Assembly (NCBI GenBank): GCA_964404255.1
Contig: CAYOJJ010000007.1
Location: forward strand, 11,659-75,658
From: an uncultured Alphaproteobacteria bacterium
Lineage (GTDB): Bacteria > Bacteroidota > Ignavibacteria > Palsa-1295
Length of the DNA: 64,000 nucleotides
Reading direction: 5' to 3'
Each line of letters starts with the position of its first letter. The stretch's first letter is position 1. The notes beneath the pieces are model-generated. The model saw only the letters and a program-made list of their open reading frames with translations. It had not been told where the DNA came from and ran no database searches. Shown here piece after piece: positions 18,061 through 32,871 of this stretch. Position numbers and translations under genes: made by a program.

Positions 18061-18534
18061 ATGCTCGGTGAATTTAGTCACGTTTTTGCGTTCTTTATCT
18101 TAGCGATCATCTTTACCGCCGGTGGGCTGGTAACGAACATGATCCTTCGTCCCAAAAAACCGAATAACCTTAAGCAGTCCGTCTATGAGTGCGGCGAAGA
18201 TCCTATCGGGTCCGGTTGGATCAAATTTAATATCCGCTTTTATGTCGTTGCGCTCATCTTTATTCTCTTTGATGTTGAAATAGTCTTTTTGTTTCCGTGG
18301 GCATTAGTCTATAAACAAATGGGATGGCTGGCTTATACCGAAATGCTGGTGTTCCTTGCCATTCTTATTGTCGGTTTTGCGTATGCTTGGGTCAAAGGCG
18401 ATCTCGATTGGGTTCGTCCAAAACCCTATGTTGCCGATCTTGACGATCTGGTAACGCGCAGCAAACCGCGTCTGGCCCCGACCCCGGTACCTCAGCAGGT
18501 AGCTCCGGTACCGATCGAGGAGTTGGTGAATTAA
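18061..18534 (+). CDS. nuoA: NADH-quinone oxidoreductase subunit A (with ~35-aa C-terminal extension)
   Basis: Three TM helices; conserved YECGE motif; first gene of the nuo cluster; start at MLGEF (the ORF is open from 17986). Confidence 0.8.
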
Positions 18535-18566
18535 GAACGCATTCCGTATTCGTTCAAAATCGAAAT

Positions 18567-19070
18567 ATGGGACTTTTAAATAAATATGATAATCCGTTCG
18601 ATAGCGGTAATATCGTTATTACCGGTGTTGATACTCTTTTAAATTGGGCGCGCCTATCGAGCCTTTGGATGATGGGCTTTGGCTTGGCCTGTTGTGCTAT
18701 CGAAATGATGGCAGCATCGGCCTCGCACTATGACATCGGCCGTTTCGGGGTTATCCCGCGTCCGAGCCCGCGCCAATCGGATATCATGATCATCTCGGGT
18801 ACCGTTACGCTAAAAATGGCAACCCGCACCAAGATCTTATATGAGCAGATGCCCGATCCGAAGTACATTCTTTCGATGGGTTCGTGCTCGAATTGTGGCG
18901 GTCCGTACTGGGAGCATGGTTATCATGTTCTTAAAGGGGTCGATCGGGTGATTCCGGTCGATGTCTATATTCCCGGCTGTCCGCCGCGTCCGGAAGCACT
19001 GCTTGAAGGACTCATGAAGCTTCAGGAAAAAGTGCGTCGTCAATCAGTAGCCCAATCCGCCCTGAGCTAA
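18567..19070 (+). CDS. nuoB: NADH-quinone oxidoreductase subunit B
   Basis: [20 protein letters not shown] and GCPP cluster-N2 cysteine motifs. Confidence 0.9.
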
Positions 19071-19073
19071 ACC

Positions 19074-30791: not shown

Positions 30792-30837
30792 TAGTTGTAA
30801 AAAGGCTAACCGATTTCAGAAGCTTTTTCTTGTAGCT

Positions 30838-32550
30838 ATGCACTCATTCTTGCTTGATATGGCAGCTGCCGGAAATGGATTGACAAAATTCATTTCGGTG
30901 AGTATGCAGAATTTTCAGCCGGAAACGACTCTCACGGTAGGGTTTCTGCTTGCCATTGTTTTCGATCTGCTGATCAAGAAATCTTCCATGAAAAAAGCGA
31001 CCGGGGTATTTGCCCTGATCGTTCTGGGTACAGCCTTCGCCCTTTCCTGTATGCAGATGACGTGGTATAATGCTGCTGAGCATGGCTGGAAAGGTGGCAA
31101 CATTATTTTCCCGTATACACAGACCCTGTTTGCTCCGCAGCACCAACCCGATGGCTCCTGGAGCGGGTATGGTATGGCAGTCGTGGATAACTTCGGTGTG
31201 ATCTTTAAGATGATCATCTCGCTTTCCGGGATGATGGTTATCGGTATGTCGATGCTTTCCAAAGAAGTCGAGGCGCGCGGCCGCAATAACGGCGAATTCT
31301 ATTCGTTGTTACTGGCCCTCACCCTTGGTATGTTCCTCATGCCGTCTTCAATGGATTTGGTAATGATGTATATCTCGCTCGAACTCGTTTCGATCACGAG
31401 TTACATTATGGCAGGCTTCATGAAGGATAATTCGAGAAGTACCGAAGCTTCAATGAAGTATGTGCTCTTCGGAGCATTCAGCTCCGGCCTGATGATCTAT
31501 GGCTTCTCGATCATTTACGGTCTTACGGGTACGACGAATATCAATGCCATTCGGCAGATTCTCGAAGGGCAATTCGCCAATGGTACGGTCAATACCGTTG
31601 CGCTCTGGACGGCTGTTATTCTTTCGATCGCAGGTATGGGCTATAAGATCAGTGCCGCACCATTTCACTTCTGGACGCCCGATGTTTATGAAGGTGCTCC
31701 GATACCGGTAACGGCATTGCTTTCAGTTGCTTCGAAAGCTGCTGGCTTTGGCTTATTAATGAGATTTTTACTCTTCGCCATTCCTTCGAACGGTTCAACG
31801 TTATTGCCGTATCTCAACTGGCCAATGCTTGTCGCTATTATGGCGGCCCTGACGATGACGCTCGGTAACTTTGCGGCTCTGCGGCAATCGAATGTTAAAC
31901 GTATGCTTGCCTATTCGACGATCGCTCATGCCGGTTATATGATGGTCGGCTTAGTGAGTATCGGGGCGGGACAGAAACTGATTGGCGTACAACCAGGGAA
32001 TTTCGAAGCAGGAATGAGCTCCGATGCCGGTGTCACCTCGATCCTAATCTATTTGATCTCATATCTCTTTACGAATCTTGGCGGGTTCTATGTTGTCATG
32101 CTGATCGCCAATAAGATCAATTCCGAGGAGATCGAAGATTATAAAGGCTTTGCAAAGAAATCACCCTTGTTGGCATCGTGCCTCACGCTTTTCCTTGTAT
32201 CGCTTACCGGTATCCCATTGACTGTGGGCTTCATCGGTAAGTTCTATATCTTTACTGCGATCGTCAAACAGCCACAATGGTTGTGGCTTACGGTCATTAT
32301 GGCATTGAATTCTGTCGTCTCACTCTATTATTATGTACGCGTGATGCAGGCAATGTTCATCAAGCAGGCTGACGATCAGACAGCAGCGGCAGGAACGATC
32401 GAATTACAGCCCGATGGAACACTGCGTTACAGCATTATCTCCAAAGTGTTCATTTTTGCATTCCTCATTCCGACGGTCTTCTTCGGTATTTATTTTACCT
32501 GGCTGGTCGATTTCACGAGTAATGCCATTCGGTTCTTTATCGTACAATAA
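30838..32550 (+). CDS. nuoN: NADH-quinone oxidoreductase subunit N (start may be the internal ATG at 30904)
   Basis: Antiporter-like subunit; FHFWTPDVYEGAPIPVTALLSVASKAAG. Confidence 0.85.
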   Translation: MHSFLLDMAAAGNGLTKFISVSMQNFQPETTLTVGFLLAIVFDLLIKKSSMKKATGVFALIVLGTAFALSCMQMTWYNAAEHGWKGGNIIFPYTQTLFAPQHQPDGSWSGYGMAVVDNFGVIFKMIISLSGMMVIGMSMLSKEVEARGRNNGEFYSLLLALTLGMFLMPSSMDLVMMYISLELVSITSYIMAGFMKDNSRSTEASMKYVLFGAFSSGLMIYGFSIIYGLTGTTNINAIRQILEGQFANGTVNTVALWTAVILSIAGMGYKISAAPFHFWTPDVYEGAPIPVTALLSVASKAAGFGLLMRFLLFAIPSNGSTLLPYLNWPMLVAIMAALTMTLGNFAALRQSNVKRMLAYSTIAHAGYMMVGLVSIGAGQKLIGVQPGNFEAGMSSDAGVTSILIYLISYLFTNLGGFYVVMLIANKINSEEIEDYKGFAKKSPLLASCLTLFLVSLTGIPLTVGFIGKFYIFTAIVKQPQWLWLTVIMALNSVVSLYYYVRVMQAMFIKQADDQTAAAGTIELQPDGTLRYSIISKVFIFAFLIPTVFFGIYFTWLVDFTSNAIRFFIVQ

Positions 32551-32871
32551 GTGATACCATTTGAGATTTCTGTAGAAGAGTTCGATGCCTTGCGTAAAAA
32601 GGGGATCGAACACCAATTGATCGATTGCCGCCAGCCGAACGAGTTTCAAGTCTCGAATATCGGCGGTGAGCTTATGCCAATGCAGACTATCCCGCAGCAT
32701 CTGGCAGATTTTCGTGACGATATCCCCTTGATCATTGTCTGCCGTACTGGCAGCCGCAGTGCGATGGTGACCCAGTTCTTACGCCAGAACGGCTTTCCCA
32801 ATGCCCAGAACCTTGCCGGTGGTATTTATGCCTGGCATGATAAGATCGATCCGGAAGTAAAAAAATACTGA
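32551..32871 (+). CDS. Single-domain rhodanese-like sulfurtransferase; GTG start abuts the nuoN stop
   Basis: Active-site loop CRTGSRS; ~106 aa. Confidence 0.7.
   Translation: MIPFEISVEEFDALRKKGIEHQLIDCRQPNEFQVSNIGGELMPMQTIPQHLADFRDDIPLIIVCRTGSRSAMVTQFLRQNGFPNAQNLAGGIYAWHDKIDPEVKKY

Follow-up and report, generated by a model that had tools for sequence, protein, structure and literature searches.

An 11-Subunit nuo Operon of Kapaibacterium-Like Bacteria with Conserved Passenger Genes, Including One for a Putatively Secreted Subtilase

Gene Content of the nuo Locus

The complex I (nuo) genes described here lie in a window of 64,000 nucleotides (nt) from contig CAYOJJ010000007.1 of assembly GCA_964404255.1. 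Positions 18061-32871 of this window hold 11 core nuo genes and four extra genes, all on one strand and separated by gaps of 58 nt or less (Table 1). The extra genes encode a small membrane protein (orf74), a protein with a signal peptide (orf187), a subtilase of family S8 ending in a type IX secretion system (T9SS) sorting domain, and a rhodanese. The order nuoA-B-C-D-H-orf74-orf187-I-J-K-L-S8-M-N-rhodanese was proposed in an initial annotation made from the sequence alone; the list of open reading frames (ORFs) gives identical coordinates, and Pfam and NCBIfam agree. That annotation also described genes for exported or membrane proteins other than Nuo subunits embedded with very short spacers. 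The spacers hold as described, with the nuoL stop at 26688 followed by the S8 start at 26728, and the S8 stop at 29157 followed by the nuoM start at 29190.

Pfam and NCBIfam matches exceed the curated cut-offs for nearly all Nuo subunits, with NuoI falling slightly below the NCBIfam NuoI cut-offs, while orf74 and orf187 match no family in either database. The view of the locus as an 11-subunit cluster lacking nuoE, nuoF and nuoG is borne out within the window: all 11 subunits were identified, and a tblastn search of the 64 kb with NuoE, NuoF and NuoG from a second nuo cluster (locus L044) gave no match (best E-value 1.3), whereas the same queries matched other loci at E=0 as a positive control. 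The absence of nuoEFG concerns the window alone and carries no inference for the whole genome.

Table 1. Features of the nuo locus, in window coordinates
Feature	Position	Strand	Description
Terminator-like hairpin and T-run	17875..17906	+	13-bp stem, 8 GC pairs, T-rich tail; ends upstream gene 15856-17835
Promoter-like Bacteroidetes-type -7 box TATATTTG	17981..17988	+	80 nt 5' of nuoA ATG
Conserved leader motif GGCATTTTCT	18006..18015	+	nuoA 5' region, from alignment
nuoA	18061..18534	+	157 aa; ATG 18061 favored over upstream TTG 17986; orthologues 156-157 aa
nuoB	18567..19070	+	Pfam/NCBIfam
nuoC	19074..19574	+	Pfam/NCBIfam
nuoD	19574..20779	+	Pfam/NCBIfam
GC-rich hairpin and T-run	20793..20818	+	between nuoD and nuoH, 20 nt before nuoH ATG
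nuoH	20838..21932	+	Pfam/NCBIfam
orf74, small membrane protein	21939..22163	+	conserved, two predicted transmembrane helices, always 3' of nuoH
orf187, predicted secreted PsbP/Mog1-fold protein	22164..22727	+	signal peptide; insertion private to window genome
nuoI	22746..23417	+	223 aa; Ala/Pro-rich C-terminal tail
nuoJ	23443..24120	+	Pfam/NCBIfam
nuoK	24130..24438	+	Pfam/NCBIfam
nuoL	24457..26688	+	743 aa; His/Glu/Ala-rich insert ahead of last helices
S8 subtilase with T9SS type-A C-terminal sorting domain	26728..29157	+	Peptidase_S8 and Por_Secre_tail
nuoM	29190..30791	+	Pfam/NCBIfam
nuoN	30838..32550	+	Pfam/NCBIfam
Single-domain rhodanese	32551..32871	+	loop CRTGSRS; abuts nuoN stop; lineage-conserved final gene

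Two core subunits carry unusual segments. The low-complexity insert of NuoL spans residues ~525-600 (…HFAHAATGGEHPEAAAEHHEAAEGHAAEAMHTE…HYEMMEHQEVLEHKTHE), ahead of the last transmembrane/lateral-helix region, and may be a metal-binding loop. The tail of NuoI (residues ~180-223) repeats the motif KPPPF(M/Q)AK and is missing in the NuoI of Ignavibacteria (tblastn coverage about 0.73).

Conservation of the Inserted Genes

A NuoL search of species-representative genomes returned 80 loci, designated by L numbers. NuoL of the four nearest (L001-L004) is about 80% identical to that of the window, and two of the four are labeled Candidatus Kapaibacterium. They are followed by Ignavibacteria and Melioribacter (51-58% identical), and these by Marinimicrobia, Calditrichota and others. 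Synteny traced by tblastn places S8 between nuoL and nuoM in all four nearest relatives, at 37-49% identity versus 80-89% for the flanking nuo genes. A small ORF between nuoH and nuoI is likewise present in all four (37-42% identical), and the rhodanese lies 3' of nuoN in three, the contig of the fourth stopping before that point. None of the four has orf187. In Ignavibacteria, Marinimicrobia and other clades, nuoL lies directly beside nuoM.

Further loci were found by searching with the S8 protein and examining gene context on the contigs of its homologues. L081 (a 1.8-Mb contig), L082 and L083 show the order nuoABCDH-(66-79 aa)-IJKL-S8-MN-rhodanese. In a divergent lineage whose NuoL is 55% identical (L085/L086), the order is (343 aa)-nuoH-(71 aa)-I-J-K-L-S8-M-N-rhodanese with nuoABCD located elsewhere, and S8 is a 1038-aa protein with BNR/sortilin domains. 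In L091, three opposite-strand genes separate nuoH and the small ORF from nuoI-J-K-L-S8-M, leaving the nuoH-orf74 and nuoL-S8-nuoM linkages intact despite the split. In L090, nuoH stands apart with only the small ORF beside it, the stop of nuoH overlapping the start of the small ORF. L087, L088 and L089 encode S8 homologues of about 1030-1050 aa with no adjoining nuo genes.

Three side observations concern these relatives. The conserved 343-aa protein, with a faint DUF5723 match, lies directly 5' of nuoH where nuoABCD became detached in L085 (3662-4693) and L091. The opposite-strand genes that split L091 between the small ORF and nuoI (10222-11219) include a toxin-antitoxin-like DUF433/DUF5615 pair. 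ORFs of 54-56 aa between nuoI and nuoJ in L085 and L091 were dropped as candidate genes; their products show no match to the NuoI tail and look like repeat DNA in translation.

Scanning metagenomes with the aligned nuo-embedded S8 proteins yielded 80 loci. The seven whose matches are full-length and score best all have the order H-orf74-I-J-K-L-S8-M-N-rhodanese, and the other 73 have no nuo neighbors. Of the seven, L100 is the same contig as L086, and L101, in which nuoL and a partial S8 are followed by an inverted nuoL-K-J-I-orf74-H, was excluded from the counts as probably a palindromic assembly chimera. In total, nuoL-S8-nuoM occurs in 14 loci besides the window (L001-L004, L081-L083, L085/86, L091, L095-98 and L107), some of them near-identical (e.g. 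L003 and L082), so not all represent independent species. The fourth extra gene, orf187, is missing from all 13 relatives whose loci span the orf74/nuoI junction.

The initial annotation had named two outcomes that would undercut its reading, insertions universal in relatives with separate promoters and terminators, and misassembly. The comparison shows nuoL-S8-nuoM, nuoH-orf74 and nuoN-rhodanese kept in relatives. The insertions retain their novelty for orf187, which is unique to the window genome, and lose it for S8, orf74 and the rhodanese, which are fixed across Kapaibacterium-like lineages. Because the arrangement is held even where the operon is split elsewhere, these three are old, vertically inherited members of the operon and not an assembly error. 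That an assembly or binning artefact misjoined a protease contig and small ORFs into a nuo operon is scarcely credible, even though the window comes from a 146-kb contig of the metagenome-assembled genome (MAG) type, orf187 is found in one assembly only and metagenome contig L101 looks chimeric. The nuoL-S8-nuoM and nuoH-orf74 junctions recur in the 14 other loci, which come from different projects and assemblers and include contigs of 1.6-1.8 Mb, and this recurrence in separate assemblies already excludes an artefact for S8. Even orf187 is joined seamlessly: no nucleotide separates it from the orf74 stop, nuoI lies 18 nt away, and the composition of orf187 is operon-like.

Interrupted 11-subunit nuo operons recur with other passengers in other lineages of the Fibrobacterota-Chlorobiota-Bacteroidota (FCB) group, and the exceptional status first given to this one was overstated. 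Five Ignavibacteria-like MAGs (L005, L008, L009, L024 and L033) carry a gene for an outer-membrane protein of roughly 650 aa between nuoK and nuoL. TSP3 repeats mark this protein; of the three examples scanned, two also have an OmpA domain and one gives a weak β-barrel match. It provides a second instance in which a gene for an envelope protein became fixed in an 11-subunit nuo operon. In the Caldithrix MAG L028, a CheW-CZB gene separates nuoJ from nuoK, and an IS200-like transposase separates nuoL from nuoM (12105-12671). MNT/HepT toxin-antitoxin pairs occupy the latter junction in L038 (3773-5235) and L058 (11694-12865). The variety of passengers at nuoL/nuoM indicates that this junction repeatedly accepts foreign DNA. 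What sets Kapaibacteria apart, judged from these sequences, is the fixation of the inserted genes and their intact retention over deep divergence. No paper on the arrangement of the window, including under Kapabacteria and complex I, was found in the literature search.

Transcription of the Cluster

On its 5' side, the nuo transcription unit is bounded by the hairpin at 17875-17906. Downstream of it, the element cnTATATTTGTA is invariant at -80 to -108 from nuoA in all eight genomes possessing nuoA, and TATATTTGTA, the invariant form of the -7 box, is found 80-108 nt upstream of nuoA in the same eight of eight. The TATATTTG box is conserved only upstream of nuoA. A second motif, GGCATTTTCT ... 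TGTTTT, is conserved 3' of the TATATTTGTA box in the nuoA leader (window, L001-L004 and L081-L083) and is a possible regulatory element of the leader. Neither the operon nor its leader matched an RNA family in Rfam.

The junctions within the cluster are tight. The nuoH-orf74 gap is 6 nt and the orf187-nuoI gap 18 nt, the orf74 stop abuts the orf187 ATG, and the rhodanese gene starts directly after the nuoN stop. Across eight genomes the nuoL-S8 gap ranges from -4 to 39 nt and the S8-nuoM gap from 23 to 42 nt, no wider than gaps between genuine nuo genes. The negative value reflects L002 and L083, where the nuoL stop and the S8 start overlap by 4 nt as ATGA. No hairpin is present at the nuoL/S8 or S8/nuoM junctions, with folding ΔG at or above -5.7 kcal/mol in every one of the 8-9 genomes compared. 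Strong hairpins do occur in the nuoD/nuoH and nuoM/nuoN spacers of some genomes.

The hairpin at 20793-20818 resembles a canonical intrinsic terminator, with a 9-bp GC-rich stem and TTATTTTT. The corresponding spacer in relatives is either 3-21 nt long or holds very large hairpins (-58 and -62 kcal/mol), and the nuoD/nuoH junction is where the operon is physically split in the more distant relatives L085/L091. The element is possibly an attenuator or an RNA-stability element.

A different organization, in which S8 and nuoM-nuoN are independent units packed tightly together, each driven from a separate promoter concealed within the 3' coding region of the gene before it, would also produce short spacers. 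In one genome, L001, a TAnnTTTG motif lies 188 nt upstream of S8; the TAnnTTTG consensus may not be the promoter of this clade; and matches to sigma-70-like hexamers are found throughout, including at 29071-29100, a short way upstream of nuoM. These matches are no commoner than in shuffled sequence, however (31 versus 24.5 ± 6.1), and so stand at background. L001 is the only genome with TAnnTTTG within 300 nt upstream of S8, none of those examined has it within 300 nt upstream of nuoM, and no motif is conserved between genomes upstream of either gene. The 4-nt overlap of nuoL and S8 in two relatives and the lack of a terminator-like hairpin between the genes in any genome also argue against separate units, which we regard as distinctly unlikely. 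The initial annotation had proposed that the secreted protease is co-transcribed with complex I subunits. This is still the best reading, given the absence of hairpins beside S8, the overlapping genes of the two relatives and a box found only before nuoA, and the whole block is probably co-transcribed.

The Encoded Extra Proteins

The S8 protein consists of a signal-peptide-like N-terminus, a pro-region, a catalytic domain, two domain copies of ~115 aa and a type-A T9SS sorting domain. The N-terminus, MKTVTIAVASILAIIMAAVAPAQT, resembles a Sec signal peptide as judged by eye. The two ~115-aa copies are 42% identical, and most orthologues, at about 680 aa, have a single copy. The catalytic domain matches PF00082 at 143 bits against a cut-off of 21.8. 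The residues D178, H252 and S424 occur in subtilase order and are invariant in 58 homologues, and the oxyanion residue N314 is kept in 53 of the 58; by sequence, S8 is predicted to be an active subtilase. The sorting domain of the window protein is marginal (PF18962, 28.0 versus 27; TIGR04183, 25.0 versus 23), and that of its orthologues scores 35-39 bits. Secretion by the T9SS is predicted from the domain match. A multicopper oxidase encoded at 8669-10648 is a second T9SS-tailed protein in the window and is consistent with T9SS use by the organism.

A neighbor-joining tree of the S8 catalytic domain (midpoint root, no bootstraps) places the nine proteins of known nuo context on one side of the root and the three of known non-nuo context on the other. 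Such a division is in keeping with one insertion in an ancestor and vertical descent thereafter. As a separate observation, S8 evolves much faster than its neighbors, at 37-49% against about 80% identity for the same genome pairs.

Nine orf74 orthologues share two predicted transmembrane helices, and most have an acidic tail. Residues F8, F12, G15, A19, W23, I38, G40, H41, Q44 and P55 are invariant among them. A profile search found 72 clusters, all of 51-105 aa and none with a Pfam domain; those with a taxonomic name are Kapabacteria or Bacteroidota. The profile matched no sequence in the PDB. This conservation argues that orf74 is a genuine gene. It stays directly 3' of nuoH in L091, where the operon is broken after orf74, and in L090, where nuoH stands alone, the pattern expected of a subunit or assembly factor associated with NuoH. 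The embedded genes had at first been called unrelated to complex I, a label that probably does not suit orf74, attached as it is to nuoH even where nuoH is isolated. It is a candidate lineage-specific accessory subunit or assembly factor, and it is the sole inserted gene likely to act on complex I, via NuoH.

The orf187 protein is of a different kind. A word-based search of 5.8 billion proteins returned no close relative other than itself, the exact orf187 sequence has no match in the contig index, and an exhaustive HMMER search found 94 remote homologues, some stand-alone proteins of about 185 aa and others C-terminal domains of TPR proteins. One TPR-fused homologue, P0125, reaches the PsbP model PF01789 (29.4 bits versus 23.5), whereas orf187 itself fails to match the PsbP profile by sequence. 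Its AlphaFold (AF2) model, with a confidence (pLDDT) of 92.4, was compared with known structures by Foldseek. CyanoP, PsbP, DcrB and chains of the supercomplex of the chloroplast NADH dehydrogenase-like complex with photosystem I (NDH-PSI) matched with probability 1.0 and a TM-score of about 0.6, and Mog1 was also matched. The model thus points to a PsbP-type alpha/beta fold. In the PDB, the nominal top match comes from a chain in the NDH-PSI supercomplex of spinach, and NDH-PSI is matched in two other entries as well (9grx, 7wff and 7f9o in all); the top-matching chain is presumably the PsbP-like lumenal subunit PnsL1 (PPL2). Its Foldseek E-values are practically tied with those of CyanoP and PsbP. 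The nearest homologue (36% identity) adjoins a Der GTPase gene and has no nuo context. These ties, this context and the absence of orf187 from all 13 relatives suggest a recent, private insertion of a gene for a periplasmic PsbP-fold protein. The GC and third-codon-position GC (GC3) contents of orf187 are ordinary for the operon, and the 64-kb window holds no paralogue.

The rhodanese gene follows nuoN, abutting or overlapping it, in every lineage with S8, at 50-72% identity. It matches PF00581 at 52 bits, and the active-site loop C(R/H/K)xGxRS is kept in eight orthologues.

Origin and Retention of the Passenger Genes

The explanation that we consider probable is that the 11-subunit operon of Kapaibacterium carries ancestral S8, orf74 and rhodanese genes passed on by vertical descent, that orf187 was added later, that the block is co-transcribed and that the protease is a mere passenger. 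In the ancestor, the gene for a membrane protein of 66-95 aa with two transmembrane helices would have become fixed directly after nuoH, that for a T9SS-exported subtilase at the nuoL/nuoM junction and that for a cytoplasmic single-domain rhodanese after nuoN. From then on the three would have descended vertically with the operon, and the window genome would later have acquired a fourth passenger, the periplasmic PsbP-fold protein, between the small ORF and nuoI. Transcription of the whole block would most likely start at a single promoter upstream of nuoA and might be attenuated at the nuoD/nuoH hairpin. Expression of nuoM, nuoN and the rhodanese gene would then require RNA polymerase to pass through the protease gene. 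The protease would be an extracellular or cell-surface enzyme, presumably for protein scavenging, that hitch-hikes on nuo expression and remains outside complex I. S8 would persist because the protease is useful and because its excision or relocation would need to preserve expression of nuoM and nuoN.

Several points weigh against this explanation. The TAnnTTTG motif is not significantly enriched in the intergenic DNA of the window (6 of 41 versus 8% expected, p=0.12), and it is a weak promoter proxy whose consensus may not be the clade's own. Since enrichment is not significant, we rely on conservation across genomes and not on the presence of the motif; with the hexamer scan also at background, co-transcription is something that we infer and do not claim to demonstrate. 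The nuoD/nuoH hairpin could end many transcripts, while nuoH onward has no evident promoter, and promoters may lie inside the nuoL or S8 coding sequence. The GC3 of S8 is the lowest in the operon, 0.43 versus 0.48-0.63 for the nuo genes. Finally, the retention of S8 at its position in every lineage examined could reflect selection for co-regulation and not neutral hitch-hiking.

This last point is the core of an adaptive alternative that we consider rather unlikely, in which the protease is held in the operon by the usefulness of co-regulation with a complex dependent on ferredoxin or on another, unknown donor. Secreted proteolysis could, for example, supply amino acids for oxidation by 2-oxoacid:ferredoxin oxidoreductases, and the complex would oxidize the ferredoxin that these enzymes reduce; T9SS export would also depend on the proton-motive force that the complex generates. 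S8 sits at the same junction in 15 of 15 loci, across large divergence and operon splits, and its catalytic triad is invariant. Organisms of the Ignavibacterium album type encode several 2-oxoacid:ferredoxin oxidoreductases and have been proposed to use a donor other than NADH for this complex (PMC3362086), and one review describes the T9SS motors as driven by proton-motive force (PMC10202324). A retained position, however, is equally expected under neutrality for a gene locked between essential co-transcribed neighbors. The same junction holds plainly selfish elements in other lineages, and sister clades have the same complex without the protease.

Somewhat unlikely, but a shade less so, is a broader proposal in which Kapaibacteria have a complex I with supernumerary parts (orf74, the rhodanese and, in the window genome, the PsbP-like protein) and the protease is kept by selection for co-expression. 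By analogy with known complexes, orf74 may here be a membrane subunit or assembly factor, the rhodanese may be a cytoplasmic partner echoing ST1 of Yarrowia, and the P-side orf187 of the window genome may echo PnsL1 of chloroplasts.

Under vertical descent of an operon with a passenger protease, the locus is a conserved quirk of a lineage, neither an error nor a one-off. The 11-subunit operon was already known, and the Kapaibacterium passengers are new. Which electron donor the NuoEFG-less complex I of the FCB group uses, and what its role in physiology is, are uncertain, and genes that have long traveled with its operon, especially orf74 and the rhodanese, are rare clues to both. S8 is a clear-cut natural case in which the gene for a secreted enzyme is locked in an essential respiratory operon, at a nuoL/nuoM junction that tolerates insertions in several phyla. 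For function prediction based on operons, "guilt by association" would mislead in the case of S8, and in the annotation of MAGs such interruptions might pass for misassemblies.

Other Genes of the Window

Two large proteins with DUF4062 and TPR regions (NPHP3-like) are encoded near each other on the minus strand at 1496-4336 and 5384-8359. By analogy, their architecture is reminiscent of NLR/STAND-type defense or signaling proteins. A 1035-aa sortilin/BNR protein is encoded at 10716-13823, and a 1616-aa ORF at 46976-51826 has no Pfam match. Two window ORFs of 659 aa were considered as paralogues and rejected as such on comparison.

Comparison with Known Systems

A precedent within the FCB group for functionally unrelated genes inside, and transcribed with, a complex I operon is the nqo cluster of Rhodothermus marinus. 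Melo et al. reportedly showed by experiment in 2005 that this cluster includes nhaD and pcd and that they are co-transcribed with it. The Rhodothermus marinus complex has 14 subunits, and instead of a secreted protease its passengers are an antiporter of the membrane and a cytoplasmic enzyme.

The S8 protein itself has the layout of T9SS-cargo subtilases of Bacteroidota (KP-43-type, Bergeyella, PMC11982257; review PMC10202324): a signal peptide (putative in the window protein), a pro-region, an S8 domain, beta-sandwich domains and a type-A sorting domain. Unlike the S8 gene of the window, the genes for those enzymes have not been reported within respiratory operons, and our literature search found no paper connecting a nuo operon with a subtilisin or the T9SS.

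The NADH dehydrogenase-like complex (NDH) of chloroplasts is likewise a ferredoxin-dependent NDH-1 with 11 core subunits. It lacks the NADH-oxidizing N-module, and its lumenal subcomplex (SubL) subunits are thought to be stabilizing (PMC12170339). The orf187 protein and chloroplast PnsL1 share the PsbP fold and a location on the P side of the membrane, predicted in the case of orf187. Their identity, however, is just 10-16%, and the fold is also common to DcrB, Mog1 and chaperones of the type VI secretion system. Unlike PnsL1, orf187 is found in one genome only, and the likeness is one of predicted fold.

A rhodanese-type protein is tied to complex I in Yarrowia lipolytica, where the sulfurtransferase ST1 associates with the enzyme and is substoichiometric and dispensable (PMC8161149). 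The Kapaibacterium rhodanese, a putative associate of the complex by its gene position, is not eukaryotic, unlike ST1.

The closest comparison is with the 11-subunit operons of Chlorobi, Ignavibacteria and Bacteroidota, which have the same core order A-B-C-D-H-I-J-K-L-M-N and no N-module genes. Examples are IALB_1622-1632 of I. album (PMC3362086) and the operon of Ca. Thermonerobacter (PMC6338057); both organisms also have a 14-subunit set elsewhere in the genome. The 11-subunit enzyme has been proposed to use an electron donor other than NADH, such as ferredoxin (PMC3362086, PMC6338057). Ca. Thermonerobacter thiotrophicus was placed near Kapabacteria by its authors, who describe its nuo cluster as a single 11-gene operon (PMC6338057). 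Its gene numbers, _100001513 to _23, read N, M, L, K, J,., H,.,.,., A (PMC6338057). Eleven consecutive numbers leave no space for inserts, so the insertions mark Kapaibacterium-like lineages and not every relative. Where the operons of I. album and Thermonerobacter are described as 11 contiguous genes, that of the window interleaves three conserved extra genes and one private one among the same core.

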